Part shown: in pieces, positions 9,580-62,640 of the stretch
Numbering within the stretch: the first letter of the stretch is position 1
Layout of the letters: the number at the start of each line of letters is the position of its first letter
Source of the DNA: an uncultured Bacteroidales bacterium
GTDB taxonomy: Bacteria > Bacteroidota > Bacteroidia > Bacteroidales > UBA10428
Direction: 5' to 3'
NCBI GenBank assembly: GCA_963790105.1
Contig: CAWBNI010000025.1
Coordinates: 76,638-140,637 of the forward strand
DNA length: 64,000 nt
Program-made: the position numbers and the translations under genes
The notes under the pieces: model-generated
Seen by the model: only the letters and a program-made list of their open reading frames with translations
Database searches by the model: none
Told to the model about the DNA's origin: nothing

Positions 9580-9690
9580 CATTATTCATTATTCATTTTT
9601 AGTTCATTGTTCTGTTTAAAAGGATTCCTTACTCCCTACTCCTCTACTTCTCCTCGTCCCTACTGTCTCCCTCGTCCCTCGTCCCTAATC
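9580..9690. repeat. ATTATTC x2 followed by CTTACTC/CCTACTC/CTCGTCC word stutter
   Basis: CATTATTCATTATTCATTTTT (9580-9600). CCTTACTCCCTACTCCTCTACTTCTCCTCGTCCCTACTGTCTCCCTCGTCCCTCGTCCCTAATC (9627-9690). The last 30 nt encode the C-terminal RDEGRGRQ of the 9660-9920 CDS. Confidence 0.9.
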
Positions 9691-9920
9691 AGCATGGCCA
9701 GGTAATCCAAATGTTCCCTGAAAGCAGTCTTTCCTTCGGGAGTTGCCATATACTTCGTATTTGGCTTGCGACCGATGAATTGCTTCTTTACTTCAATGAG
9801 CCGGTTTTTTTCAAGAGCGGAAAGATGACTCGCCAGGTTACCATCGGTTATATCAAGCAAATCTTTCAGCGTAACAAAATCTACGGATTCATTTACCATT
9901 AATACTGACATAATACCCAA
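9660..9920 (-). CDS. Small winged-helix transcriptional regulator
   Basis: 86 aa from a TTG start. wHTH-like core: LKDLLDITDGNLASHLSALEKNRLIEVKKQFIGRKPNTKYMATPEGKTAF. The tail is supplied by the repeat array. Confidence 0.6.
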   Translation of the reverse strand: MGIMSVLMVNESVDFVTLKDLLDITDGNLASHLSALEKNRLIEVKKQFIGRKPNTKYMATPEGKTAFREHLDYLAMLIRDEGRGRQ

Positions 9921-9983
9921 CCTGATCCTGCTTTCAAATTGCTTATTTAATTTTGAAATTAATTCCTTAACCTGTTACACTAT

Positions 9984-10013
9984 TTCATTTTTCACTTTTT
10001 CACTTTTCACTTG
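9984..10013. repeat. TTTT(T)CAC x3 stutter
   Basis: TTTCATTTTTCACTTTTTCACTTTTCACTTG. It overlaps the stop and last codons (GTSEK*) of 10000-10653. Confidence 0.9.
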
Positions 10014-10795: not shown

Positions 10796-11218
10796 ATGAT
10801 GAAAAGCCATCCATTCAGGATCCTTCTATTTTTTCTTGTGATTTTATGCCCATCATTTGTATATGGTCAGGATAAAAAGGCCGTAAAGCATAAACTGAAA
10901 AGCATCACGGAATATGAGCAGAAGTATGAGAAGGGCGTTGCCGGAAAAGCATTAAAGGAATCCGAGATCCTGTATGACACTGATGGCAATGTTGTTGAAG
11001 AAACGGAATACAAGCTGGGAAAGATAAGCAAGCACGTGATGTACCAGTACGATGATAACAACAACAAGATCCGAGAGACCGAGCTTGACCCATCCGGCAA
11101 AAAGATAAAAGTTACGGAATTCAAATATACTGCTGATGGTTTGAAGTCGGAGAAGACCGTTTACGACGCAAACAATAAGATCATATCAAAGAAGACGTAT
11201 AAGTACGAAACTTATTAG
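10796..11218 (+). CDS. Hypothetical secreted protein with short Y/D/G-rich beta-hairpin repeats
   Basis: Intact 140 aa with a signal peptide. Repeats of the type EYKLGKISKHVMYQYDDNNNKIRETE and FKYTADGLKSEKTVYDANNKI. Confidence 0.4.
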   Translation: MMKSHPFRILLFFLVILCPSFVYGQDKKAVKHKLKSITEYEQKYEKGVAGKALKESEILYDTDGNVVEETEYKLGKISKHVMYQYDDNNNKIRETELDPSGKKIKVTEFKYTADGLKSEKTVYDANNKIISKKTYKYETY

Positions 11219-11227
11219 GCGTATAGA

Positions 11228-11267
11228 CATCTAGGCATCTAGGCATCTAGGCTGCTGGGCTGTGAGG
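11228..11267. repeat. CATCTAGG x3 plus GCTG(G/T)G words
   Basis: ATCTAGGC is the reverse complement of the GCCTAGAT word at 1469-1500. The array sits between convergent genes. Confidence 0.95.
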
Positions 11268-12561: not shown

Positions 12562-15500
12562 TTAGGATCCATTTGTCTTTGCATATTCAACAGGAGATAC
12601 CCCAAATAACTTTTTAAACGACCGGTTGAAATAGGAAAGGTTATTAAACCCTACTTCAAGGGAAACCTGTGTCACATTGCCGAAATGCTGCTTTAGCAAA
12701 CTGGCCGCCCTTTTCAGTCGAATTGTGCGGATGAATTCAGTAGGACATTGTCCGGTCAGCGCATGTATCTTACGAAAAAGGGTGCTGCGGGTCATGTTCA
12801 TTTCTTCTCTTAATTTGTTGAGGTCGAAGTTTTCATCATCCATTAGTTTTTCAATAACCTCCATTGCCTTGTTCAGGAATTTCTCATCCATCGAAGTAAT
12901 TGAAATATCACTGGGTTGAAGGGTAACCTCCTGACGGAACCTCTCCCTGAGTTTTCTGCGTTGTTCAATCAGGTTGGATATCCTGGCTTTTAACTCAGTC
13001 ATATGAAAGGGTTTGGGTATATAATCATCGGCTCCCACAAGAAAACCGTTTATCTTTTCCTCCAGGGTAACTTTGGCGGTGAGCATGATGATGGGTATAT
13101 GACAGGTACGTTCATCATTCTTCAGTCTTTCACAAAGTTCTTTACCATCCATGTGCGGCATCATCAGATCGGTGATGATCAGATCGGGGATCGACTCAAT
13201 GGCTTTATTCAACCCGGCAACACCGTCAATGGCCTGCAGAATGGTATATTGCCTGAATAAATTTTCGGCCAGTTGCATCCGGATTTCCCGATTGTCATCT
13301 ACTATAAGTAAAATAGGTTTCTTTTCCGGGGATTTTTCTTCCTCTGGTTGGTTAGCCTCTTTACTGTGAGATTGCAGATCCGGTCTTAGATCAATGCATT
13401 CCGGTGATTCTTTCAGCAATATAAATTCTGATTCTTTCAGGTGATTTTTACCGAGGGGAAGAATAACTGTAAAGGAACTGCCTTTTCCGGGTGTACTTTC
13501 TACCAGGATATCCCCATGAAGTAATTTTACTATATCTCTGGTCAGTGAAAGCCCAATGCCGGTGCCTCCACTTTCCGATTTCAATGATGTCTCTACCTGG
13601 TAAAAACGGTCAAAGATCTTTTCAAGACTTTCGGCCGGAATTCCCGGTCCCGTATCTTTGACTGAGAATTCCAGAAACTGCTCAACCAGGCTATCATCGC
13701 TTTTTTTACAAATTGCGGTAAAAATGATTTCACCTCCCTGAGGTGTAAATTTAAAAGCATTTGAAAGCAGGTTACCGGTAATCTTTTCCAGTTTATCCGG
13801 ATCAAACCAGTATTTCGTTTCATACTTCTGGAAATGACACACATAGTTAATGCTTTTAGTTTCTGCCAGGGAAATAAAAATGCCTGTAATTGCCTGCAAG
13901 TGATTTATTACATTCGCTTCGATCAGTTCCAGCTTCATTTTGCTGCCATCCAGCTTGGATATATCAAGCAATTGATTGACCAGGTTTATCAGTCGCCGGA
14001 CATTTCGCTGAACCGTATTCAGTTTTCTCCGCTCTTTTTCAGTACGCCGCGGATCATCCAATAGTTCTTCAACCGGGCTCTGGATTAATGAAAGTGGTGT
14101 TCTGAATTCATGTGATACATTGGCGAAAAACCGGCTTTTTAATTCTTCATGTTCGGAAATCTGCCGATTTTGCTCTTCAAGCATGTCTCTTTGAGAAAGT
14201 ATCTCTTCTTTCTGTTCCCCAATTTGGCGGGTACGTAAATTAACCTGCCGTTCCAATTCCAGTTTTTCTTTTTTCAATCGCCAGAGCCGCAGACGGATAT
14301 ATGCAAAGACGAAGCCTAAAACTATCAGCACATACATGCTCTGGGCGAGGAATGTCGCCCACCAGGGTTTATGAATCTGGATGGTGAGTGAGATACCCTC
14401 TTCGTTCCATACGTCATGATTGTTTGAACCTTTAACCCTGAAAACATAAGTTCGCGGATCGAGATTCGTATAGGTTGCTATCCGGCTTTTAGCATCGGTA
14501 AATATCCATTCTTTATCATATCCTTCCAGTTTGTATGCATATTTGTTTTTATAAGGCTGATTATAATCCAAAGCGGCTAATTCAAAAGACAGATCATTTT
14601 GATTATGTTTCAGATTAATAGACTTTGTGTAGGCAATATTCCTGGTTAAAATATCATTTTTAGAGGTATTGGCCTTTACTGATTTGTTGAAGAGTCGCAG
14701 ATCACTAATAATAATGGGAGGTACATAATCATTTGTTTTGAAACTATCCGGATAAAAACTATAAAATCCTCCATAACCGCCAAAAAAAATCCTGCCTTCT
14801 TTGTCTTTGAATACGGAGTTTCTGCTGTAATATATAAGAGGAACTCCATCATCTTCTTCAAAGACTTTTAGTTTTCCTGTTTTCATGTTTAAGCGGCACA
14901 GTTTTTTATAGGTTCCTAGCCATAGATTATTTTTATTATCGGAAGTAATTGACATCACAGATTGAAAATCAGTATTTTCGAACAATTTGTAACTTTGATT
15001 TTCACCTGTATTTGGATCCAGTCGATGAACTCCTGTTTCATTTCCTATCCATAAAAATCCATTATTGTCTTCATAAAAAATATAATTTGTTGAAACGCCA
15101 ATTTCGGCATCAATAAATTTATTTTTATTTATTACGGGTGTCAGGTCCAGGATATCAAGTTTGGTATTGAGTTCAATTTTACGGATTCCATAAAAATTGC
15201 CAACTGCCCATATTTCACCATTCTTCTTTTTGATCAGGGAACCAACCATGGTGGCGGAACTAAATGACGTTTTATAAATCTTTTGATTTTCATAGTTGTA
15301 TGCAAATAAACCTATCGTGGTTGCTATATATAATAGTTTTCCATCATCCAGCAAATCCAGTGTCTCTACCTTCCGTAAATTGTCAGCTATTCCTGTGTGG
15401 GGTAAAGGATCACGAAATTCTCCTGTTTTGAGATTGAATTCAAGTATCCCTTTATCACTGCCAATCCATAATAATCCATTAGCAGAAGCGGGTATGAAAC

Positions 15501-16785
15501 AGGTAATTTTTTTAGTTGCCCCGGGATCATACTGGGTAACCTCATTAGATTCCGGTTTAATTTTGTATAATGCTTTATAATTGATTAGGATCCATAAGTT
15601 TTTCAGACTGTCTTCATAAATTTTACATATTCTAATACTATCGAGATTTTGGATGGTTAGTTTTTCATAGCTCGTAAATACCAGGCGGTTCATTTTAAAT
15701 TTGGATACTCCTGAAGAAACCTGTGCAATCCAGATTATTCCAGACTTGTCCTCAATTATATCATTTACCCTGAAGCGCAGTTCCTTATCGTTTGGATAGG
15801 TTGTGTTATAGCCTATTAATTCAAAGGAAATTTCTTTTGATTTATTGGCTTTGTTGATTAAGTAGACTTTTTTATCCACCATAACAAGAAAATTCTTATT
15901 TCCGTCAACGGACAAGATATTAATACTCTCTCCGCCTGTTAACTTTAAGGAAAAATCAAGCAACGAAACATCAGGGTCATTACCTTGAAGTGCCATTTTG
16001 ATATTGGTAAGCAGGTAAAGGCCTTTTGAATCCAAAATCCATGCAGAATTTTCATCAATCGGCAGTATTTTTCTCACAAATTGAATTTCCTGCCGCATTC
16101 CGCCGGAGGTCGTTCTATCCAGTCGTATGTAGGTATTTTGCCCCTTTTTCATTAGAAAGAGACCCTCTGCACAGCCCACCCATATATTTCCCTGCTCATC
16201 TTTGTTAAGAGAAAACACAGGATTATTAGCGCCCTGTTTTTGATATGGAGGTGGAAAAGATTCAATTTTAAAACTGTTATTTGCGCCCTGTTTAAATATC
16301 TCATCTTTTGTAATTGAGGTTTTCAGTTTTTCACTATACGATATTTTAAAAAGCGCTGCTAAATCAGCCGCCCATATATTGCCTTGATTATCTGAAAGCA
16401 TAGTTGACATCCAAAGGACTCCCTCATCGTGCTGATAGACCAGCATTGACCTTTCTTCTTCCGGATCATAAAGTCTTATTCCTGAATCTGTCAGCAACCA
16501 AAGTAAACCCAGGGTGTCCTCAACAATTTTCTGGATTTTACCAAATGAGCAATTTTCACAACCTCGGTTATCACTTATAGAAGTTACCTCATAGCCATTA
16601 TGTCTGTACAGGCCGGTCGGACCTCCCATCCAGATAAATCCTTTGGAATCCTGCATAATACAAGTAAATTCATGATCAGCAAGCCCCGGTTCGTCGGGAA
16701 GCTGCTCAAAATTTACTTTGGAATTCTGACAGAAAAGGCTGGGAACTGATGCTATAATTAAAAATATTAGCAAGACCTTTTTCAT
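12562..16785 (-). CDS. Hybrid two-component system sensor kinase/response regulator with AraC output (HTCS type)
   Basis: Intact 1407 aa. Signal peptide, periplasmic propeller-type repeats, a TM helix, the H-box FANVSHEFRTPLSLI, an HATPase domain (GGTGIGLSL), a receiver domain (LLIVDDN..DLIITDLMMPHMDG) and a C-terminal AraC HTH. Confidence 0.9.
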   Translation of the reverse strand: MKKVLLIFLIIASVPSLFCQNSKVNFEQLPDEPGLADHEFTCIMQDSKGFIWMGGPTGLYRHNGYEVTSISDNRGCENCSFGKIQKIVEDTLGLLWLLTDSGIRLYDPEEERSMLVYQHDEGVLWMSTMLSDNQGNIWAADLAALFKISYSEKLKTSITKDEIFKQGANNSFKIESFPPPYQKQGANNPVFSLNKDEQGNIWVGCAEGLFLMKKGQNTYIRLDRTTSGGMRQEIQFVRKILPIDENSAWILDSKGLYLLTNIKMALQGNDPDVSLLDFSLKLTGGESINILSVDGNKNFLVMVDKKVYLINKANKSKEISFELIGYNTTYPNDKELRFRVNDIIEDKSGIIWIAQVSSGVSKFKMNRLVFTSYEKLTIQNLDSIRICKIYEDSLKNLWILINYKALYKIKPESNEVTQYDPGATKKITCFIPASANGLLWIGSDKGILEFNLKTGEFRDPLPHTGIADNLRKVETLDLLDDGKLLYIATTIGLFAYNYENQKIYKTSFSSATMVGSLIKKKNGEIWAVGNFYGIRKIELNTKLDILDLTPVINKNKFIDAEIGVSTNYIFYEDNNGFLWIGNETGVHRLDPNTGENQSYKLFENTDFQSVMSITSDNKNNLWLGTYKKLCRLNMKTGKLKVFEEDDGVPLIYYSRNSVFKDKEGRIFFGGYGGFYSFYPDSFKTNDYVPPIIISDLRLFNKSVKANTSKNDILTRNIAYTKSINLKHNQNDLSFELAALDYNQPYKNKYAYKLEGYDKEWIFTDAKSRIATYTNLDPRTYVFRVKGSNNHDVWNEEGISLTIQIHKPWWATFLAQSMYVLIVLGFVFAYIRLRLWRLKKEKLELERQVNLRTRQIGEQKEEILSQRDMLEEQNRQISEHEELKSRFFANVSHEFRTPLSLIQSPVEELLDDPRRTEKERRKLNTVQRNVRRLINLVNQLLDISKLDGSKMKLELIEANVINHLQAITGIFISLAETKSINYVCHFQKYETKYWFDPDKLEKITGNLLSNAFKFTPQGGEIIFTAICKKSDDSLVEQFLEFSVKDTGPGIPAESLEKIFDRFYQVETSLKSESGGTGIGLSLTRDIVKLLHGDILVESTPGKGSSFTVILPLGKNHLKESEFILLKESPECIDLRPDLQSHSKEANQPEEEKSPEKKPILLIVDDNREIRMQLAENLFRQYTILQAIDGVAGLNKAIESIPDLIITDLMMPHMDGKELCERLKNDERTCHIPIIMLTAKVTLEEKINGFLVGADDYIPKPFHMTELKARISNLIEQRRKLRERFRQEVTLQPSDISITSMDEKFLNKAMEVIEKLMDDENFDLNKLREEMNMTRSTLFRKIHALTGQCPTEFIRTIRLKRAASLLKQHFGNVTQVSLEVGFNNLSYFNRSFKKLFGVSPVEYAKTNGS

Positions 16786-16991: not shown

Positions 16992-17453
16992 TTATTCATA
17001 GTTCAGTTGAAGGCCAAAATACTTAAAGACATTTTCAATGGTTTTATCTGTTAGTGCCAAATGAAGCTTGTCGCCATCATAGATAGCGAAGTTGGCAACC
17101 GTATCATGAGGTTTAACTGATTCAAAATTGAAGGTTTCATACCGGTAAAGACTCAACTCACCCTTCTTTTGAAGCAGCTCCATGAAAGCCATATCACCCG
17201 TTGGTTTACCGTACTTGTACAACGGCATTTTATTAAATATTTTTCCCTCTACGGAATAAGAATTCAGCTTTTCAATAGGTAACTTCATTACCTTACCATT
17301 TTCCAGCACTGCCCGGACATTGGATATACCAAAGCTGATACTTTTTATGTTCATTTTACCAGACGTTGTTGATATCCAGGAACTGGTGGGTTCAGCTGCA
17401 ATTCCCGCGAGGCAATAACCGGCAGCTACTAAAAGAACAAACAATTTTTTCAT
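16992..17453 (-). CDS. Small secreted protein, paralog family member P3
   Basis: Intact 153 aa with a signal peptide. GGAGGAA lies 6 nt upstream of the ATG (17460-17466 on plus). Confidence 0.6.
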   Translation of the reverse strand: MKKLFVLLVAAGYCLAGIAAEPTSSWISTTSGKMNIKSISFGISNVRAVLENGKVMKLPIEKLNSYSVEGKIFNKMPLYKYGKPTGDMAFMELLQKKGELSLYRYETFNFESVKPHDTVANFAIYDGDKLHLALTDKTIENVFKYFGLQLNYE

Positions 17454-17527
17454 TTTTAATTCCTCCGATAGTTTAGTTTAAAATTTTTACTTTTTTAAGC
17501 CCGAAAGCTGAAGTAAAAATAAGTAAG

Positions 17528-17573
17528 GAGGAGGGGTGAAATCAAACACAATTGACTCATTGGTTTGAAGAAT
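17528..17573. promoter_or_regulatory. 46-nt element conserved upstream of P3 and P4
   Basis: GAGGAGGGGTGAAATCAAACACAATTGACTCATTGGTTTGAAGAAT is identical at 18327-18372. A degenerate copy lies upstream of P2 (about 12465-12530). Confidence 0.5.
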
Positions 17574-17586
17574 TGGATCAAAAAGT

Positions 17587-17640
17587 GATTTAACGATTTT
17601 TGGATTTACGATTTACGATTCTTCGTGGGTTGCACCCACG
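17587..17640. repeat. GATTTAC-type words followed by a hairpin
   Basis: GATTTAACGATTTTTGGATTTACGATTTACGATTCTTCG (ATTTACG is the reverse complement of CGTAAAT). Then a 7-bp stem CGTGGGT-TGC-ACCCACG (17624-17640). Confidence 0.9.
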
Positions 17641-17739
17641 AGTATTGAAATCAGGCACTTTGACGAGTTGATTTCCAAACCTGGTAGCCCAAAAGTTTAA
17701 CGTGTTTGCCCAGTTCTGGTCAGAATTAAATATTATCCC

Positions 17740-17788: not shown

Positions 17789-18254
17789 TTACTCATATAC
17801 AATCTTCACATCAAAATACTTGCTGATATTTGCCATCGATTTTTCGTCCACTGCCAAATAAAAGTTGTCTCCCTTATAAACCAATAAGTTATAAGTTTCT
17901 TTCAGTGGGGTAGTAAATGGCTCGTAAATATAATCAGTACACCTATAAAGGCTTAATTCGCCTTGAGTCTTTATAAGTTCCATAAATGCCATCTGTTCAG
18001 TTGGCTTACCATTTTTATACAAGGTGAGTTTGTTAAACACCTTGCCATTGACTGAATATGAACTAAGCTGGTCAATGGGTAACTTAAGTTTCTTGCCATT
18101 TTCAAGTAAAATCCTGGCATTGGAAAGACCAAAGCTGATCCTTTTCATTTCCATTTTGCCTGATTTGGACATTATCCAGGAACTGGCAGGTTCAGCTGGC
18201 AATCCCCGCGACACAATATCCAGCGACAATCAAAAGAACAAATAACTTTCTCAT
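17789..18254 (-). pseudogene. Small secreted protein, paralog family member P4, frameshift in the signal peptide
   Basis: ATG at 18254 gives MRKLFVLLIVAGYCVAGIAS*. One extra A near 18190 separates this from AEPASSWIMSKSGK.. (ORF 17789-18229). GGAGGAA lies 5 nt upstream of the ATG. Confidence 0.65.
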
Positions 18255-18326
18255 TGTTTTTCCTCCTATAGTTAAGTTCAGAATTTTACTTATTTAAGGT
18301 TGAAAACTGAAGTAAAGATAAGGTAA

Positions 18327-18372
18327 GAGGAGGGGTGAAATCAAACACAATTGACTCATTGGTTTGAAGAAT
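18327..18372. promoter_or_regulatory. Second copy of the 46-nt conserved upstream element
   Basis: Identical to 17528-17573. Confidence 0.5.
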
Positions 18373-18385
18373 AGGACCAAACAAT

Positions 18386-18557
18386 GATTTACGATTTCTG
18401 GATTTACGATTTACGATTCTTCGCGATTACCGATTACCGACCTCACCCACACGCTGTCGCTGAAGCTTTAGCGTAAGCGTCCGAAGCCTCAGCGAAGGCG
18501 GGATACCGAACACCGAACACCGAATACCGGTTACCGGTTACCGATTATCGATTACCG
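18386..18557. repeat. Long composite array (ATTTACG, CGATTAC, CCGAACA, CGGTTAC words)
   Basis: ATTTACG at 18387, 18402 and 18409. CGATTAC x2 (18424-18437). A quasi-repeat AGCGTAAGCGT/CAGCGAAGGCG. CCGAACA x2, CGGTTAC x2 and CGATTAT CGATTAC (18505-18557). The 3' part encodes the VIDNR* tail of 18538-19738. Confidence 0.9.
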
Positions 18558-19738
18558 TCTGACTGATTACGCCCGTTTTCTTATCCTTGAGAATAACCTT
18601 CACAGAGCCATCCGGCATGGTTTCCTTCTTTACCAGGTAATGGCCGGCATCATAATCACGGGTGGCATGGATGGGTTCTGACTTGTCCTTGCCCCGCCAG
18701 ATATCGAGTTTCACCGGCTCCCATTTTTTTGATTTTGATGACCTGTAACAGGCATCCATGATCTCATTCACTACATACCCGTCATAGAATGTCTCATTTG
18801 GCTGGGTCTTGTTTTCATAGGCCCGGAACATATCGGTAAACATGTCTGTATATCCCAATTCCACGACCTCATCGCCCACGGGAAACAGCCATCCTTTTTC
18901 GGTCTCGGCTTTTTCAGCCACATAACCTCCTTTGCTGGAAGCTGTGAATATTTCAAATCCTGTTCTGAGGAAATTATTCACCCAGATAGTGCCTTCCGTT
19001 CCCATGGCTTCATCCCTCAGATCCATTCCGCCGCGGAAAGACCAGCTGACTTCAAACTGGCCGATGGCCCCATTTTCGTATTTCACCCATCCCAGGGCAT
19101 TGTCTTCGGCTTCAATGGGCTTTACCAGGGTATCAGCCCAGCACATGACCTCAACGGGGCGGATATCTTTACCAATATAATTCCTTGATATTTCAATGCA
19201 ATGACAACCCATATCAAGCAGCACGCCTCCACCGGAGATTTCTTTTGTCCAGAACCAGTCGCTGTGCGGACCGGGATGTGTTTCCCTTGACCTGGCCCAG
19301 ATCACATCACCTATTGCCCCTGACCTTACTGATTTCAGTGCTTTTAGTGTTTTTGGAGTATAAACCAGATCTTCCATGTATCCATGCATCACACCTGCTT
19401 TTTCTGCGAGTTCAAGCATCTCCATTGCTTCTGCAGCATTGCATCCAAGCGGCTTGGTGCAGAAAACTGCTTTCTTTGCTTTTGCAGCCAGCCTCACTGC
19501 CTCCAGGTGCAGGTTATTTGGCAGCGCCACTACTACAATGTCAACTTCAGGATCATTTACTGCCTTTCTCCATTGAAGTGGTCCATTCAGGTATGCCGTG
19601 TTTCTGGGCAAAGGCCTTTCCCCGGCCTTCATCCCGTGAATAAATGACCTGCACTGCATCACGGCTTCGCTGACCATGAATGGAAAAAGTATAAAAATCA
19701 CCGATAAATCCGGCACCGAGCATGGCTACTTTTGGCAT
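18538..19738 (-). pseudogene. Gfo/Idh/MocA-family NAD(P)-dependent oxidoreductase, one frameshift
   Basis: The N-terminal piece 19553-19738 has the Rossmann motif [11 protein letters not shown]. The remainder lies in 18538-19716. Frames 1>0 (one extra nt). Confidence 0.8.
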
Positions 19739-20002
19739 AGTTGTTAGTTGTTAGTTGTTAGTTGTTAGTTGTTAGGTATCAGGCTGTTAGGCTGTAGGCT
19801 GTTAGGCTGCTAGGCTGTTAGCGTACTAGGCTTCTGCAGGCTTGCACGTTGACTGCAGAACTGCAGACTGCACATCTGCATAACTATCAAATTTGCACAT
19901 TAGCACATTTGCACATTAGCAAATCTTGCACATTGTAAATTGCACATTGTATTGTCTTTCACTTTTAGTTATTAGTTTTTATCATTTATCTTTTATCTTT
20001 AT
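19739..20002. repeat. Largest composite array, filling a divergent spacer
   Basis: GTTGTTA x5 (19740-19774). GGCTGTTA/GGCTGTA/GGCTGCTA x5-6 (19782-19830). CTGCAG-containing units. Six GCACAT cores (19870-19947). TTAGTT and TTTATC stutters to about 20002. Confidence 0.95.
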
Positions 20003-20028
20003 GTCCCTAACTAAAATACATTATTCCC

Positions 20029-21357
20029 ATGAAAAGAATAACATGTCTGGGCATATTTTTGACCCTTTCTTTTTACCTGGTTGCACAAGTGTATCAGCCA
20101 ACCTGGGAATCTATCGATAAAAGACCTGTTCCCCAGTGGTTTACCAATGCAAAATTTGGCATTTTTATTCACTGGGGTGTGTATTCTGTTCCCTCATGGG
20201 CTCCCGCCAATGCACCCATTGGCGTTTATGCCAAATATGCCGAGTGGTACTGGTATAAAACTACTGTTAATTCCGGTGAAGAATACAAATATTTCAGGGC
20301 ATTTGATTCCACCATGTATGGTGCAAAGCATAAATACGCTGATTTTGCCGGACAGTTTAAGGCGGAATTGTTTGATCCCACGGCAATGGGCAGATGTTTT
20401 TGTAAGGTCGGGTGCAAAGTATGTGGTTCTCACCTCAAAACATCATGAAGGGTTCTGCCTCTGGCCCAGTGAGCAAAGCTGGAACTGGAATGCCGTGGAT
20501 ATCGGCCCGCACCGTGATCTGGCCGGCGATCTTACCAGGGCAGTAAAAGCCAGGGGACTGCATATGGGCTTTTATTATTCCCTGTATGAATGGTTTAATC
20601 CACTTTATAAAAACAATCTCGAAGAAATATGTGGATGATCACATGATCCCGCAAATGAAGGACCTTGTTACCAGGTATACCAGCCTGACATACTATGGAC
20701 TGATGGGGAATGGGAACATCCCAGTGAGGATTGGAAAAGCACTGACATTCCTGTCATGGCTGTACAATGAATCGCCCGTAAAAGACCAGGTTGTGGTTAA
20801 TGACCGGTGGGGCAAGGAAACAAGATCGGTACACGGTGGAATCTATACAACTGAATATGATCTGGTAAACGATAAAAAGGGAATCGGCAGTGCAGCTGCC
20901 CATCCATGGGAAGAATGCCGGGGTATCGGAACTTCTTTTGGTTACAACCGGGTTGAAGACCTGAATAATTATATGAGTTCAAAGGCACTGGTGGATTTGC
21001 TTATTGCGAAAGTGTCATCCGGCGGAAATCTTTTGCTTGATATCGGTCCTACAGCTGACGGACTGATTCCGGTTATCATGCAGCAACGGCTTGATTGATA
21101 TAGGCGACTGGCTGAAGGTAAACGGCGAAGCCATTTATGATTCCCGTGTATGGCAAAAGCAACCGTCCGCTGCAATCCCGGATGTGTATTTCACCTGCAA
21201 GGGCAGCGATCTGTATGTTATCTGCACAAAATGGCCTCAGAAATCACTTGTTATTCCGGGGATTCATTCAGCCGGAAAAGTATCCCTGTTGGGATCAGAC
21301 GTAAAGGTCAGTGCACAGGCAAATGGAAAACTCACAATTCGATCCACCTTCAATTAA
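20029..21357 (+). pseudogene. GH29 alpha-L-fucosidase, at least 3 frameshifts
   Basis: Pieces starting at 20029, 20081, 20586 and 21091 (frames 1>2>0>1). Motifs [47 protein letters not shown] and GGNLLLDIGPTADG. Confidence 0.85.
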
Positions 21358-21472
21358 TCCCGGGAAACATGCCCTGTTCATATGCATGGGTTTTCAAGGT
21401 AGAAAATTACCGGGATTAACAGCTACTTTTCTACTGAAATTACGTATACAAATCTGAGACTAAAAAGAACGC

Positions 21473-23691
21473 ATGTTACTACGGTGGATTATTACTTTTT
21501 ATGTATTGCAGGTATTTTTTCAAAGTTCATTCGCTCGGAATAACACAATTGATCATTGGGAAACGGTAGTGATGGCCAATGATACCTGGCATTATTTTGT
21601 GGGATTTAACATCGGACCTCCGTTAGGGCTGGCAGAATCCCGCTTTTAATGATGCCACCTGGCTAGCAAGGTCCCGGAGGATTTGGCTATGGCGACGGAG
21701 ATGACGCTACTTTGATTTCCACGTCCCGCCAAATCCTTACTCGGTCTTTATCCGCTTGCAGTTCACGATCCAGGATACCTCGAAAATCAGCATGGCGCTT
21801 TTGAATATGGACTTTGACGATGGTTTTGTTGCCTGGATCAATGGTGTTGAAATAGCCCGGTCAAACCTCGGAACGGTTGGTGATTATCCTGCCTTTAATG
21901 CCGCAGCCATTGATCATGAAGCAGTGATGTACAATCAGAATGGCTCCACCTTCTTACCTGGTTTCCAGGCAAAAGTTAAAGGATGCCTGATAAATGGTAC
22001 AAATGTAATCGCCATACAGGTGAATAATATTAAGCAATACTTCCAGTGATATGAGCTGTATTCCCTACCTGTCGGTGGCTATGAAAACCGCAGGACTCAC
22101 TTACCGGAATGTTCCTGCCTGGTTTGAAGAACCCTATGTAAATTTCGTCGGTTCCACTCTTCCTTTGATAATTATCAATACCGGTTCAAATGTTTTGCAA
22201 CAGGATGTTAAAACGATGGTGGACATGGGTATCATCGATAACGGACCCGGAGAAATGAATTATCTAACTGACGATTGGAACAATTACAATGGCAAAGCAG
22301 GAATTGAGATAAGGGGTTCATCCTCTACCATGTTTGATAAGAAGAATTATGGAATCGAACTTATGGAAAACGGCCGAAGATGATACCTCCTTTTCCCTGA
22401 TGGGCTTGCCGGCCGAAAGCGACTGGATTTTACATGGCCCTTATTCCGACAAAGCTCTGATTCGAAATTACCTGGCCTATACTCTGGCCCGTGATATGGG
22501 CCATTATGCATCCCGCACACGTTTCTGTGAATTGTTTCTGAATGATCAGTACAGGGGTGTTTACGTTCTTATTGAACGAATTAAACGTGACAGTGCCCGT
22601 GTGGATATTGCCAAATTGTTGCCTACCGATGTCACCGGCGATCAGCTTACCGGAGGGTATATCGTAAAAATCGACAGGTCAGCCGGTGATTATACAGATG
22701 GCTGGTTTTCTCCCTATCTTGGAACAGGAAGTGGCGGAAGCGGCCCGTTTTTTGCCTACAGTTATCCCCAGCGGGATAAAATTGCGCCAGATACAGAAAA
22801 CCTACATTAAAAATAAGATCACTTCTTTTGAAGATGCCCTGCACGGAAGCAAGTACCTTGATCCGTATGTGGGTTATAAGACTTTCATTGATGTGAGCTC
22901 TTTTGTTGATTATTTTATCATGGTTGAATTGAGCAAGAACACTGATGGATACAGGCTGAGTACCTTTCTTCATAAGGACCGCGATGGAAAGGATCCCAGA
23001 CTTCATATGGGCCCGATCTGGGATTATGACCTTGCATTATGGAAATGCCAATTATTATGAGTCTTTTAATACCTATGGGTGGAATTATACTTTTCAGTCG
23101 GACGGGTGGGGAACTCCCTTCTGGTGGAACAAGATGCTGACCGATCCCTATTTTGTGAATATGTTATATTGCCGGTGGCATGAGTTCAGGCAGGGAGTAC
23201 TATCCGATGAATCCATACTGGCACGCATTGATTCTGCTGTTTCTGTTATTGGTGCTGCTGCAGGACAGGAACTTTGTGCAGTGGCCGATCCTGGGAGTAT
23301 GGGTATGGCCAAATTATTATGTAGGATACACCTATGAGCAGGATGATCAGCTATATGAAAACATGGATCACTGACCGGGCTGCCTGGCTGGATTCCAATA
23401 TACCGGGAAACACCTGCCTTTCGCCGGTAAATGATAAGGATGCCACTTTTACCTTTCTTTTAAGGGCCTATCCAAATCCTGCCATCGAAGAGGTAAATAT
23501 TGAGATACAGAATGAAAGATCTGAAAAGCTGGGTCTGGAGATCTTTAATTACACAGGCCAGCTGGTATACAGTAAACAATTGTCCAGCTGAGCCAATGGT
23601 CACTGAAAAAATCAGGCTCCAGCCAGGTGCCTACCTTATTAAAGTAACCGGAAAAGAAAATTCAAGGACAGAAAAAATCATGGTGCAATAA
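21473..23691 (+). pseudogene. Secreted CotH-family protein with a T9SS C-terminal sorting domain, about 10 frameshifts
   Basis: Signal peptide at 21473. CotH core KKNYGIEL..WILHGPYSDKALIRNYLAYTLARDMGHYASRTRFCELFLNDQYRGVYVLIERIKRD. C-terminal domain YPNPAIEEVNIEI..GAYLIKV. Pieces step through frames 2>0>1>..>1. Confidence 0.75.
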
Positions 23692-27745: not shown

Positions 27746-27795
27746 GGTATTCGGTATTCAGGTAATCGGTAATCGGTAATCGGTATTCAGTAATG
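27746..27795. repeat. GGTATTC / GGTAATC heptamer array
   Basis: GGTATTC x2, GGTAATC x3, GGTATTC, AGTAATG. The array starts 1 nt after the transporter stop codon. GTAATCG is the reverse complement of CGATTAC. Confidence 0.95.
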
Positions 27796-30930: not shown

Positions 30931-31043
30931 AATTGATAGTTGATAGTTGATCGTGAGACTGGGAGTGAATGACTGCAAGCCTTGTTCATAACTCCAACTA
31001 CAACTACCAACAACTAACAACTAACAACTAACAACAATCAACT
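30931..31043. repeat. Composite array ending in the (TAACAAC)n leader
   Basis: TTGATAG x2-3 (30933-30953). AACTCCA/ACTACAA/CTACCAA words. TAACAAC x3 (31015-31035), then AATCAACT immediately before the ATG at 31044. Confidence 0.95.
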
Positions 31044-32096
31044 ATGCTAAAATATGCAGTATTCGGATGCGGTTTTTGGGCAAAATTTCAAATCGGAGCC
31101 TGGTCCGAAATTGAGGGGGTTGAATTGGTTGCCTTATATAACCGTACATTGGTGAAAGCACAAAAATTGGCTGAAATGTTTCACGTGCCACATGTGTATG
31201 ACAATGCGGAAGAATTGCTCCAAAATGAAAAGCCTGATTTTGTTGAAATAATTACTGATGTGGATACGCATGCCTTGTTCACGGAACTGGCAGTTAAACA
31301 TGGTGTTAAAAACATTATTTGCCAGAAACCGATGGCACCTGATTTTGAGACGGCCAAAACACATGGTGGATTTATGCAGGAATGCCGGGGTAAATTTATA
31401 CATCCATGAAAATTACCGTTGGCAGGCACCGGTCCGTCGTTTCCGTGAGATCATGGATTCGGGTATTATCGGCACGCCTTTTAAAGCCCGGGTTTCATTT
31501 CTGTCAGGTTTTCCTGTATTCGATAACCAGCCTTTTCTTAAAAATCTGGATAAGTTTATCCTCACGGATATGGGATCGCATATTCTTGATGTCACCCGTT
31601 ATCTTTTTGGAGAGGTCAAAACACTTTGGTGCCAGACCCGTTCAATTAATCCGGGGATTAAAGGGTGAGGATCTTGCGGTTGTGATGATGTGAAATGAAA
31701 AACAGGATGCCTGTATATACTGAAATGTCATATGCATCCATTGTTGAACATGATTCTTTCTCCACGGTTTTTATCCTGGTTGAAGGCGACAAAGGTTCTG
31801 TTTACCTGGGTCCCGGATTTGAGATCAGGACAACAACCCGTGAAAAAACTACATCTGAAATTGTGAAATTTCCGGGTTATCCCTGGGCTGACCCGAATTA
31901 TATTGTAAATCATGAAAGTGGTATACCGCTCAGCCGGAATATCCTGGCAGACATGCTCGCAAAGGGAAAGGCCGAAAATACAGGGGCTGATAATTTCGAA
32001 ACAGTAAAACTGGTATGGGCCTCCTATGAATCAGCAGCTACCGGAAAACTGATCGACGTGGATTCATTTAGTGGAAATAACGGCCATATTGAATAA
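31044..32096 (+). pseudogene. Second Gfo/Idh/MocA-family oxidoreductase, 2-3 frameshifts
   Basis: N-terminus FGCGFWAKFQ..ICQKPMA. Middle HENYRWQAPVRRF.. (frame of 31258). C-terminal piece 31695-32096. Confidence 0.75.
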
Positions 32097-35915: not shown

Positions 35916-35939
35916 ATCCTATTCTATATCAAAATCAAT

Positions 35940-35967
35940 CGTAAATCGTAAATCGTAAATCGTAAAT
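35940..35967. repeat. CGTAAAT x4
   Basis: Four exact units. As at 1517-1544, the array runs directly into a minus-strand TGA stop (35967-35969). Confidence 0.95.
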
Positions 35968-36513
35968 CAATTTACTGCCATTTTTTCGAGCACCGAACTG
36001 GCCATCAGGTTATTTTTCCGGAGAATTTCCTTGTTCATTTCAAATTTCATAACACCGTTTACCGGGATAAAATTAATCATTGATCCTTTATCAATCAGAC
36101 CTTCGGTTTGAGAAACGATGAGCGTATGGCTTCCGCTGGTCTTTTGTACCAATGCATTTATTTTGTTGCTCTGCCAGTCAGCCACAAATACAATTTGCTG
36201 GTATCCTGAAACTTCATTCACCGAACTAAAATACCTTACAACGATAGGCTGCAAACCAACCCTCATGTTTTGAGTAAGCTTTGTCATTTCAGTATAAAGT
36301 TCCTTATCACCAACGATCGTAGATGACAAAGTCACCCGATTTGTTTTCTTCCGGCCAGTTAATGTTTCTCGAAAAATTGTAAAGACAATTTGAAAGATAC
36401 TTCGTCATTGAAACAATTTTCACATCCTGGGATTTACCTGACTCTGTAATTAAAAACAGCAGTATAAATGCAACTGTCAATCTGAGGCCGGTCTTTAAGA
36501 TAGATCTGTTCAT
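35967..36513 (-). pseudogene. YfiR-like (DUF4154) periplasmic protein, one frameshift
   Basis: Signal-peptide piece 36307-36513 plus body 35967-36335 (frames 0>2). The family call is from overall similarity only. Confidence 0.5.
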
Positions 36514-48256: not shown

Positions 48257-48310
48257 CTTCATCGGTCCTCATCTCTTACTCCTTACTCCCTAGTCCCTAG
48301 TCCCTCTTCC
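48254..48310. repeat. TCC(C/T)TA(G/C) heptamer stutter
   Basis: CTCTTAC TCCTTAC TCCCTAG TCCCTAG TCCCTCT (48273-48307) with degenerate units before. It contains the stop and the last codons (RKRD*) of cydB. Confidence 0.9.
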
Positions 48311-59870: not shown

Positions 59871-59946
59871 CGAAATCGTAAATCGTACAATCGCGATTAC
59901 CGTATCCTACCGATGTACCGATTACCGATTACCGATCACCGATCAC
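59871..59946. repeat. Word-stutter array inside the nuo operon (nuoG-nuoH spacer)
   Basis: CGAAAT CGTAAAT CGTACAAT CGCGATTAC .. CGATGTAC CGATTAC CGATTAC CGATCAC CGATCAC. The last units encode GVIGDR* of nuoG. Confidence 0.95.
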
Positions 59947-62640
59947 CCCCCAGGCCGGCAATCCTATAAAAGGGATTTCCGGCAACATGGAAATACCCGC
60001 AATGCCATCCGGAATATGAGGATCTGTAAGGATCACAGCCTCCAGATTATTTTCATTTATGCTGATCTTGTAAACTGTGTTTTCACTGAGCTTTAATTTT
60101 GCTGCCATTCCAATACTGAGCAGAACAAAGGGTTGTGGAATTAGTTCAGCAATTGCCTGACCATGAGCACTTAATTCCTCTGAGCCGAAAATGCGGTGTA
60201 CCGGGACAAACAGAAATTCCCCGTTCCTTTGTTTAAAGGGTTCCGGCACCCTGATGATTTATCAGTCCGGAAGGCAAAGCAGTCCGGTCAAACAGCCGCA
60301 CACCCGGATTGCCATCCCATACCGGTCCGTCAGGTTCTTTCAGGTATTTATTGATCGCCTGTGCTGAATTCCAGCCGGGTGACCAGTAGTAGGGAATGAG
60401 TTCAGCGGGAGGATATCCCTTGTATCCTTCCATGCTGAATTTCAGGGGTGAATCCGGATCCTGGGGCGGTTCGGGTTCACTTACGTTTTGCCTTGCATTC
60501 ATGGCAGTGCGGCCACTGAATCGTGATGTTTGCCGCGCGATCTTTTCGTTATAAAAGGTAAATCCTGCATCCGGCATTTGCTCCTTAATTCCTGAAAAAA
60601 CAGGATAGGCTTCCACAAGCGAATTCAACCACCTCGTCAAATTTTTGCCATGAATGGATATTTTTGCCGGATAGATTCATCAGATCCGATGATCCATTGC
60701 CAGTTTTCTTTCACCGGATCCCTGGCAGGCAAAGCACTGTAATACCTTTGTGCACGGCCTTCGTGGTTCACAAGGGTGCCGGCCGATTCAGCATACACGG
60801 CGGAGGGGATTACCAGGTCTGCCTTGAGAGCAGTGGCATGCATCAGGTGATCGAGCACAATAACATGCGGGCATTTTTCAAGAATTTTATCTGCCTGTTT
60901 TGCCGGAAGCCTTCTGTAAAGATCGTTTTCAAGAATGATCAGTACCTCGGGCGGCTGCTGTGTCAATCTGTGCGAGTGCATCGTTCAGATGCCCGCCTTC
61001 CATCATACCAAGTCCTGCGCTGTTGCTTTCAGGGAAAGCGATCGCAATGGACAGCTTTTTATTCCTTCCCGGTAAACGCTTTACATTATTTTGGTCACTG
61101 CATCCAGAATCTCCATGCTGCCTCCGGTAATACCTGTGACGATCAAAGGATTTTCCGCTGAAAGAAGGGTCTCACTTATCCTGGAGGCCATTTCTTTCAA
61201 TGATTTGTCAGTCATCTTTATCTTCAGAATCCGGCGGATCCGATGGCAGATGCAACTGCAAAGCCCAGGCGGGCTATATCATCCGGAGCGGCATACCATG
61301 TTTCCGTAGCCACATCATCGAGTTTGGTTGAGAAGGGGAGGCAATAAACAAGGGACTTTTCACCTCATGATTCAGCTGGCGGACAGCAGAATCGTTCCAT
61401 TCAGGAATTCCCATTTTGGAAGCGATGCCGATGGACTTGTTCCGGATGCACTGGCGGACCGACAACGCCATCATGGGTGCCGTATTTGTAATGTCTTCTC
61501 CCAGGATCAAAACAGCATCGCATTTTTCAATTTCTTTCAGCGAGGGTATATGCGCCATGCCTGATCTGCAGGATCTCCAGTGCTTTTTTTACCATTTCAT
61601 ATTCCCTTGGATGAAACTCCATGGTAGAAATTATCCTTTCCGACAAATTCTGACAAGGCAAAATTTGCCTCCAGGGATGCCCTCGGAGAGCCAATTCCCA
61701 TTAATTCATTTCCTTCGAGGGAAGCAGTAAGTCCGGTCAATTGATCCAGGCCATGTATTTCATTCAAGGGATCTTTTTTTGAATCCCGAACAAGGATCTG
61801 CCGGATACGGTCTGTACTTTCAATGAATTCATAGCCAAACCGTCCCCGGTCGCACAGGAAATAGCCGTTAATATCCCCGTGATACCGGCTCAGCGTGCGT
61901 CTTACTGATCCATACCGCTCGCCGAGGATGGTATTGCAGCCCACACTGCAATGCACGCATACCGATGGTCCATTGGTGAGGTCCCATTTACGGGTATAAT
62001 GTTTTTTCAGGGTTTTATCGGTAAAAACACCGGTGGGGCATACTTCAACAAGGTTTCCGCTGAATTCGCTTTCAAGGGTTCCTTCCTTCTGTCGTCCAAA
62101 ATAAACATGATTTGCAGAACCATATACATTCAGGTCCTTTCCGCCTGCATAGTCCTTATAAAATCTTACACACCGGTAACACTGGATGCAGCGGTTCATT
62201 TCATGCTGAATGAAAGGGCCCAGGTATTGATTTGTATAGGTTCTCTTTTTAAATACAAACCGCCTGTAGTTATGACCGGTCATCACGGTCATGTCCTGCA
62301 GGTGACATTCTCCTCCTTCATCGCATATGGGGCAATCATGGGGATGATTGGTCATCAGTCCTTCCACAACGCCAGCCCTGAAATCCGCTGCATCTTTATC
62401 ATCAACTGAAACCAGCATGCCATCGGTTACAGGTTCCATGCATGACATCACAATTTTGCCTGTTTTGTCGTCGGGATTTGCATATTTCTTAACTGCGCAC
62501 TGACGGCATGCACCCACTGATCCCAGGGCAGCATGATAGCAAAAATAGGGAACATCGATACCCAGGGCAATACAGGTTTCGAGAAGATTTTTGCCTTCCT
62601 TTACCTCATAAATAATACCGTCTATCTGTATTTTTATCAT
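59929..62640 (-). pseudogene. nuoG: NADH:quinone oxidoreductase subunit G (long, E. coli-like form), at least 5 frame changes
   Basis: Start MIKIQIDG at 62640. Motifs [25 protein letters not shown] and [11 protein letters not shown]. Collinear pieces end at 61558, 60981, 60640 and 60249. Confidence 0.85.

Follow-up and report, generated by a model that had tools for sequence, protein, structure and literature searches.

The 290-nt spacer that separates a Gfo/Idh/MocA-family oxidoreductase gene from a divergent alpha-L-fucosidase gene in an uncultured Bacteroidales bacterium is largely taken up by five consecutive tandem arrays with periods of 6–8 nt. Comparison with orthologous spacers suggests that these are probably hepta- and octamer arrays born by slippage and shuffled by recombination, which lie beside a compact promoter core, form for the most part a G-poor oxidoreductase leader, and can be dispensed with. 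Such arrays are a habit of this genome and its relatives; they are no switch built for the fucosidase/oxidoreductase locus. Positions refer to the window, the whole stretch of 64,000 nt of DNA that was analysed, whose closest relatives are all Bacteroidales MAGs.

The oxidoreductase begins on the minus strand (CAT at 19736–19738) with an N-terminus that agrees with those of homologues, and the fucosidase ATG lies on the plus strand at 20029, which leaves 290 nt between the two starts. This divergent layout is kept in many relatives. Also present in the window is a hybrid two-component regulator with Reg_prop/Y_Y_Y/HisKA/HATPase/receiver/AraC domains. The two genes and the repeat segments between them are as follows (TRF, Tandem Repeats Finder).

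18538–19738, minus strand: Gfo/Idh/MocA-family oxidoreductase gene (Pfam GFO_IDH_MocA domains, translations).
19738–19775, minus strand: TAGTTGT array, reading (AACAACT)5 on the oxidoreductase strand (TRF, 5.4 copies, 100% identity).
19770–19821, or to 19832 as a 16-mer: TGTTAGGC / AGGCTGTT octamer array, AACAGCCT on the oxidoreductase strand (TRF).
19833–19885: degenerate CTGCAG-containing octamers of the ACTGCAGA type (TRF, 4.4 copies at 19852–19885, 77%).
19888–19951: ATTTGCAC octamer / CAAATTTGCACATTAG 16-mer array (TRF, 3.9 copies of the 16-mer at 19888–19948, 85%).
19960–20002, plus strand: AT-rich TTAGTT / TTTATC stutter (TRF, 3.8 copies of TTTATC at 19978–20002).
20029–21460, plus strand: alpha-L-fucosidase gene (Pfam Alpha_L_fucos matches on fragments).

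Arrays cover 216 of the 290 spacer nucleotides, compared with a mean of 3.4 (standard deviation 8.6, maximum 52) in 500 dinucleotide-preserving shuffles, and the preliminary description of the spacer as a chain of repeats is thus borne out. As in long SSRs, copies of 5–11-nt units stand head to tail beyond chance expectation. An exact motif count found every motif listed in that description, with its count: GTTGTTA occurs five times, GGCTG five times and GGCTT twice, CTGCAG three times (19834, 19853 and 19861), GCACAT six times (19870, 19895, 19903, 19911, 19928 and 19942, at spacings of 8–25 nt) TTTATC three times and, in the AT-rich end, TTAGTT twice. Five of the six GCACAT cores belong to the ATTTGCAC array; the sixth (19870) lies in the preceding part with the CTGCAG units. 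The TGTTAGGC array has 6.8 imperfect copies and was resolved by the repeat search into two families, D1 and D2. The TTTATC stutter, made of tandem copies of a −7-like box, forms the conserved edge towards the fucosidase. Of the five arrays, four have imperfect copies (77%–89% identity), and the one pure tract has 5.4 copies. Because neighbouring arrays have parts of their units in common (TTAGTTGT, TTAGGCTG, CTAGGCTT, CTGCAGGC, ACTGCAGA, CTGCACAT and TTTGCACAT), the chain looks like the outcome of serial duplication with drift at the array borders. Apart from a single weak pair of 14 nt in the region of the CTGCAG units, an inverted-repeat search of the spacer found nothing that would make a cruciform or hairpin. 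We rejected an origin from a transposon or MITE, as the arrays have neither terminal inverted repeats nor target duplications and their units are 7–8 nt long.

The sequence beside the spacer calls for some care. The oxidoreductase has 98.8% nucleotide identity to the intact gene of L089; in the window its coding sequence falls into two frames, owing to one extra base near 19565 relative to the relatives. The fucosidase, an intact protein of 460 aa in L087, L088, L089 and L091, is fragmented in the window by about eight single-base extra nucleotides (compared with L087 and L088). The window's extra bases cluster at 20.4–22.4 kb, within a tract that is 7%–17% divergent from L089. We set aside the possibility that the flanking genes are pseudogenes, since the differences are all 1-nt extra bases clustered in a divergent tract, a pattern that a strain-mixed or poorly polished long-read consensus fits better. 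Since such extra bases lie beside the spacer, the arrangement of the arrays is better established than their exact copy numbers in the window.

Arrays of 7–8-nt units also occupy about a dozen other spacers of the window.

1436–1545, 9632–9686, 9978–10012, 11216–11252, 18386–18418 and 18504–18557: the first six of the other arrays.
27746–27794, 30933–30951, 31009–31044, 35937–35968, 48287–48305 and 59894–59947: the last six.
18504–18557, minus strand: among these, a (TACCGAT)7.7 array of the AATCGGT family that overlaps the oxidoreductase stop codon (TRF).

Some of these sites lie in front of start codons, others follow immediately on stop codons or overlap them, and a convergent spacer carries such an array as well. 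Open frames of at least 120 codons make up 81% of the window, and 13 of the 14 exact arrays fall outside them; over all loci, 8 of 137 arrays are inside ORFs, which is the mainly non-coding location of long SSRs whose unit length is no multiple of three. The array at 18504–18557 shows that the same repeat habit extends to gene 3′ ends, and the AATCGGT family is found at the orthologous oxidoreductase 3′ end in L085, L086 and L087 as well. Since similar arrays also occur at gene 3′ ends and between convergent genes, they express a genome-wide habit and are no promoter-region device. The earlier view of this spacer as such a device fails on this point, and also because array-free relatives keep both genes.

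The unit vocabulary is small. AATCGGT and AAATCGT each recur three times in the window, AACAACT and AGATGCCT twice, and these families are shared with other genomes; across loci, AATCGGT recurs nine times and AAATCGT and AACAACT five times each. A few specific heptamers thus stand in tandem at many loci of one genome, as is the case for STRR sequences. In ~1.3 Mb of related loci the histogram of periods peaks at 7 (63 arrays) and 8 (35 arrays), with harmonics at 14 and 16. The number of arrays per 10 kb is 3.2 within the close clade; it drops to 0.7 for other Bacteroidales and to 0.3 for the outgroups. Hence heptamers are the most abundant class and abundance is lineage-specific, both of which are properties of long SSRs.

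Orthologous spacers range from array-free to repeat-rich. In L005, L009, L010, L011 and L091 the spacer is 73–75 nt long and free of arrays, and both genes are intact; L091 belongs to the close clade (88.8% nucleotide identity). The spacer measures 132 nt in L093 and 207–290 nt in the window and in L002, L004, L007, L085, L087, L088 and L089. It reaches ~380 nt in L003, where AAAACTGC is present in 22 copies, and 445 nt, the greatest length given, in L094. As the relatives with 73–75-nt spacers keep both genes intact, the arrays are, on this comparison, dispensable insertions into an ancestrally short spacer. Units vary by genome (GGGACAA, CAGTTTTG, GTTCGAT, GTGACTG, CAGCCTT, CAAATCA, GCAGTCAT and others). 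The TGTTAGGC unit family of the window is also present in L003, and octamers of the N-ACTGC family are found again in L003, L024, L027, L087, L088 and L094. The fucosidase side is constant: ~45 nt adjoining the fucosidase start are conserved (GGRAAWANTGTATTTTAGTTNGGGNCATAAAGATAAAAGA), and the block CATAAAGATAAAAGA within 19960–20002 is kept in all close relatives. The opposite edge is conserved too, as most close relatives have an AACAACT-type array immediately before the oxidoreductase start codon.

Array length and content differ even between strains. L089, a 659-kb ENA contig from another assembly, represents the same species as the window and is ~99% identical to it, with a background of 0–5 mismatches per 200 nt over 7.2 kb. 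Against this background of ~1%, the segment 19788–19986 differs by 54 mismatches and 25 extra nucleotides. The L089 spacer has 258 nt compared with 290 nt in the window, and its AACAACT array falls one unit short of the window's; the AACAGCCT array persists, altered by substitutions and a 1-nt indel, and ACGATTT-family arrays take the place of the GCACAT array and CTGCAG units. Judged from the alignment, slippage alone cannot account for this difference in unit sequence between conspecific central blocks. ACGATTT arrays, the central allele of the L089 type, also occur in L090, and because both central-block alleles have counterparts in other species, replacement of the block by recombination appears as likely as the birth of new arrays. 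In the sister species, L094, L095 and L096 (JGI samples) carry 9, 6 and 9 copies of a terminal pure TCATGCAG run, numbers that may be imprecise as these are probably short-read assemblies; their oxidoreductase genes are 99.8%–100% identical and their spacer flanks identical.

Other arrays are stable. Those downstream of the oxidoreductase stop have equal copy numbers in the window and L089, with few substitutions. L085 and L086, whose genes are 94% identical (91% over a 1.3-kb stretch extending past the stop), have the same number of CAAATCA copies, with substitutions, and the GTGACTG array alone differs between them (five versus three units). A difference in CAAATCA copy number seen by eye was rejected, as alignment gives equal copies. 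Copy number thus holds over 1%–9% divergence in some cases, namely for the 3′ array and for CAAATCA in L085/L086. The arrays are unstable, then, but not uniformly so, and long pure runs are the least stable. An exact-pattern scan of JGI metagenomes matched four contigs, none of them conspecific, and a look-up of the 153-aa neighbour in the window yielded just one 2-kb contig.

The consensus of the Bacteroidetes −7 promoter element is TAnnTTTG, and two candidates for it lie at the conserved fucosidase-side edge.

19994–20001, plus strand: TATCTTTA, candidate Bacteroidetes-type −7 box of the fucosidase (conserved TAnnTTTA).
20011–20018, minus strand: TATTTTAG, candidate −7 element of the oxidoreductase, conserved in relatives.

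TATCTTTA has one mismatch to the consensus. All 11 relatives scanned, with or without arrays, have a TAnnTTTA box 27–28 nt ahead of the fucosidase start codon; from this and the match to the consensus we infer that TATCTTTA is a candidate fucosidase promoter element. With the box in the conserved edge, the variable arrays would lie upstream of the fucosidase core promoter, and none between its elements. It had been proposed that both promoters must lie inside repeats, which the conserved position of this box does not bear out, and that changes in copy number would shift promoter spacing for both genes: the arrays do vary between strains, but the fucosidase box remains at a fixed distance from its ATG. 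On the oxidoreductase strand, TATTTTAG/TAGTTTG is the sole conserved consensus-like box; it is found 11–23 nt from the fucosidase ATG in all relatives, and as a perfect TAGATTTG in L010. It could alternatively be conserved merely as part of the fucosidase leader. A search for TTTG on the oxidoreductase strand found none within 149 nt of the oxidoreductase ATG. Given these positions, we see about an even chance that there is a compact bidirectional core by the fucosidase start and that the arrays, or at least the 140–150 nt nearest the ATG, are transcribed as oxidoreductase leader. A sigma-70 promoter and terminator scan gave two promoter-like sites where 1.5 were expected, sigma-70 being the wrong type for Bacteroidota.

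The (AACAACT)5 array directly abuts the oxidoreductase ATG, and the last 45 nt before this codon are 49% A, 31% C, 18% T and 2% G. From −50 to +20 the MFE is −1.0 kcal/mol, versus −12.9±4.6 kcal/mol for random 70-mers of the window, and the whole spacer as RNA is less stable than its shuffles (z=+1.5). A structured RNA was rejected, since the spacer folds worse than its shuffles, and no Rfam family matched the window spacer or that of L088. Initiation without a Shine-Dalgarno sequence is usual in Bacteroidota. By its position and composition, the array is probably the 3′ end of the oxidoreductase 5′ leader, where it would make a translation-initiation region free of G and of structure. The same AACAACT array, there ending in CAACTATG, precedes another Gfo/Idh/MocA gene, at 31044, that is unrelated to the first, and the arrays abut the ATGs at 19738 and 31044 in forward orientation, the position taken by TAACTGA-type repeats. 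AACAACT-type arrays also abut the orthologous ATG in L002, L003, L004, L007, L087, L088 and L089. In L085, L086 and L094 the ATG-proximal unit is CAAATCA, likewise G-free, whereas L091 lacks such a unit. Before the oxidoreductase ATG, as these alignments read, it is the composition that persists and not the unit sequence.

The favoured history is then as follows. The ancestral spacer would have been ~75 nt long and would have held a compact bidirectional core by the fucosidase start. Replication slippage and duplication of units with drift would have inserted, expanded and replaced arrays between this core and the oxidoreductase ATG, and recombination between alleles or arrays probably contributed to their turnover. 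The fucosidase core promoter would keep a fixed distance to its ATG, with the arrays upstream. At least the 140–150 nt nearest the oxidoreductase ATG would most likely be transcribed, as a long C/A-rich, G-poor, unstructured 5′ leader in which (AACAACT)5 supplies a structure-free initiation region without a Shine-Dalgarno sequence. The arrays would be largely neutral, tolerated under strand-compositional constraints, with VNTR-like variation in length between strains, and would be no dedicated on/off switch of the pair.

Function, through protein or RNA binding, could take the place of neutrality, as unit families recur, composition is strand-specific and arrays end exactly at start and stop codons. 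One such reading is contingency, or VNTR tuning: slippage, notably in (AACAACT)5, would alter the leader and thereby grade or switch oxidoreductase expression. This fits the perfect 5.4-copy array, the one-unit difference from the ~99%-identical L089, the 9, 6 and 9 units in near-identical strains of the sister species, and the probable location of the arrays in the 5′ leader. There is precedent for a transcribed heptamer tract that controls expression: in Haemophilus influenzae hmw1A, the length of a phase-variable (ATCTTTC)n tract in the 5′-UTR sets expression via an RNase III-cleaved hairpin (PMC12721329). As in hmw1A, a 7-nt tract whose copy number varies between strains lies here between a promoter (putative in our case) and the ATG. 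However, the hmw mechanism needs at least 11 pure repeats that form a long hairpin with a G-rich arm (PMC12721329), whereas the pure tract here has five units, the leader is essentially structureless (by both folding comparisons above) and the gene encodes a cytoplasmic catabolic enzyme. Four of the five arrays are, moreover, imperfect (77%–89%), the same arrays are also found at 3′ ends and in convergent spacers, both genes are kept in array-free relatives, and the would-be targets are catabolic enzymes of the housekeeping type and no surface antigens. We regard such tuning as unlikely.

A second reading treats the arrays as RNA-level cis-elements, i.e. multivalent sites at which an RNA-binding protein particular to the lineage (S1, Csp or RRM-type) would control the translation or the stability of mRNAs; a role of this kind has been proposed for TAACTGA repeats in Beggiatoaceae. 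In favour of such sites, AACAACT stands in sense orientation right in front of the start codons of two unrelated Gfo/Idh/MocA genes in the window and of seven orthologues, the unit vocabulary is small, and all three of the window's AATCGGT arrays read in the sense direction of the adjacent genes. Over all loci, the sense-strand composition differs between start-abutting arrays (46% A, 12% G) and stop-abutting arrays (30% G, 33% T), and similar proposals have been made in PMC4679880 and for the heptamers of Nostoc. Yet AAATCGT arrays run both with and against transcription, the ATG-proximal unit is replaced by CAAATCA in L085, L086 and L094 and missing in L091, and the binding protein remains purely hypothetical; we would rate this reading as quite improbable. 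A functional role, by graded tuning of leader length or by RNA-protein recognition of a limited unit vocabulary, is possible all the same. In its broadest and rather doubtful form, the lineage would keep a strand-specific hepta- and octamer vocabulary as UTR elements read by an RNA-binding factor, with strain-specific tunable expression. A/C-rich, G-free arrays would stand before starts and G/T-rich arrays after stops, and slippage and replacement would set the tuning. If this were true, hundreds of genes, including the fucosidase/oxidoreductase pair, would have heritable expression settings.

It is very unlikely that the GCACAT/TTGCACAT array is a set of transcription-factor sites, used for example by the neighbouring AraC-type hybrid regulator to co-regulate the pair. 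The TTTTGAT heptads of the ctxAB promoter are a model for such a battery, and it would agree with the six cores at 8–25-nt spacing, with a related AATGTGC array at the same position in L002, L007, L087 and L094, and with a regulator gene that is syntenic. But the ~99%-identical L089 has an ACGATTT array in place of the GCACAT array, which is also missing from L003, L004, L085, L088 and all array-free relatives and has many counterparts of the same kind that are built from other units. The clustered 1-nt extra bases and fragmented genes beside the spacer might point to an artefact of assembly from error-prone long reads. This can safely be dismissed, since many relatives have equivalent arrays in assemblies made independently from Illumina data (k141, NODE, JGI) and from long reads, the window's array types are common to other species, and its errors are single-base insertions and not 7–8-nt duplications.

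On the favoured reading of slippage-born, dispensable arrays, repeat-filled spacers are a signature of the lineage, and they will confuse both promoter prediction and assembly. The arrays could serve as VNTR markers for strain typing in metagenomes. The clade offers a natural series for the function of 7–8-nt arrays, with the same gene pair, from 0 to ~40 units and conserved edges, and conspecific genomes that differ only in their arrays are suited to testing leader tuning without Shine-Dalgarno-led initiation. If the arrays are neutral, they report an unusual regime of slippage and recombination in the lineage.

Several known systems resemble what is seen here. Direct repeats of TAACTGA have been described from marine Beggiatoaceae, some cyanobacteria and five Bacteroidetes; the arrays are in forward orientation a few nucleotides from start codons, in regions without Shine-Dalgarno sequences (MacGregor 2015, PMC4679880). 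The intergenic regions of Gramella and Aequorivita hold several heptamer arrays, and the spacers of their close relatives are shorter and repeat-free (PMC4679880). Unlike in those repeats, the unit before the start codon here is AACAACT (TAACAAC), and there are many unit families with no single dominant one; a search of the window found six single copies of TAACTGA and none in tandem. In cyanobacteria, STRR sequences and the contiguous heptamer repeats of Nostoc are found near promoters and start codons, where a regulatory role is suspected (10.1101/2022.06.06.494920). They share with our arrays a small heptamer vocabulary in tandem at many intergenic sites, and differ in phylum and in the sequence of the units; the arrays described here are known from sequence alone. 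The canonical units here (AATCGGT, AAATCGT and AACAACT) are, we assume, distinct from the STRR units.

The closest match is the class of long SSRs with 5–11-nt units, of which heptanucleotides are the commonest in SSR-rich prokaryotes and for which polymerase slippage has been proposed (Mrazek 2007, as summarized in PMC4679880). The lineages highlighted in that summary are Burkholderia, cyanobacteria, actinobacteria and Xanthomonas (Mrazek, Guo & Shah 2007, via PMC4679880). Relative to the survey as summarized there, the present case differs in that the host belongs to the Bacteroidales, octamers come close to heptamers in frequency, and a single spacer strings several different arrays together. 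In both, short units stand head to tail, mostly between genes, in scattered lineages, and slippage is the presumed source; the spacer has every property of the long-SSR class for which we tested.

Across all loci, the 7–8-nt arrays that adjoin start codons are A-rich and G-poor on the sense strand (A 46%, G 12%), whereas those that adjoin stop codons are rich in G (30%) and T (33%), a comparison drawn from a small sample with approximate gene calls. The window holds three AATCGGT-family arrays:

18504–18557, AATCGGT-family array
27746–27794, AATCGGT-family array
59894–59947, AATCGGT-family array

All three carry AATCGGT on the sense strand of the adjacent genes, and two start at a stop codon. 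The orthologous 3′ array of this family is retained in the conspecific genome L089 and in the related loci L085, L086, and L087. A second, unrelated Gfo/Idh/MocA oxidoreductase gene, likewise frameshifted in the window, begins at 31044, and the spacer before it contains two arrays:

30933–30951, (TTGATAG)2.7, the reverse-complement unit, just past the preceding stop codon
31009–31044, (AACAACT)n, the same array as that of the first oxidoreductase gene, ending in CAACTATG directly 5′ of the ATG

Two identical 32-nt arrays, (AATCGTA)4.6 at 100% identity, are also found at unrelated loci (1514–1545 and 35937–35968), each sharing two bases with the TGA that ends a minus-strand ORF. Arrays of the AATCGTA type, together with the motif TTCACCCCTCCTCC, recur within a duplicated segment of about 150 nt (17470–17625 and 18255–18425), the copies of which lie upstream of two small minus-strand genes (16992–17453 and 17789–18229) that appear to be paralogues. 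Since the duplicated segment contains these arrays, a gene and its arrays can be duplicated together.

In three relatives, a double hairpin is conserved in the orthologous spacers, with GACCCCGAAGGGGTC ahead of CCGTGGGTnnnACCCACGG and the pair just 5′ of the AACAACT array:

L002, 9905–9953, double hairpin
L007, about 9870–9935, double hairpin
L088, 2925–2973, double hairpin

The L002 copy carries a compensatory change, GCCCC/GGGGC. The double hairpin has no match in Rfam and does not occur in the fucosidase/oxidoreductase spacer of the window; a similar hairpin is seen elsewhere in the window, at 17623–17641.

Single-base extra nucleotides break up the fucosidase and CotH genes in the window, and most of the window's extra nucleotides of this kind fall in the fucosidase/CotH tract, over about 20300–22400. 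Within it, positions 20387–21784 diverge by 7%–17% from L089, a genome that is otherwise roughly 99% identical. Such a pattern would fit a recombination tract, a long-read consensus built from mixed strains, or both, better than it would fit pseudogenes.

The oxidoreductase/fucosidase/CotH cluster neighbours this gene in the window:

12562–16785, hybrid two-component system, AraC-type HTH, 1,407 aa

This gene is syntenic with the cluster in the window, in L089, and in the related loci L088, L092, and L093, and the hybrid two-component system is a plausible candidate regulator of the cluster.
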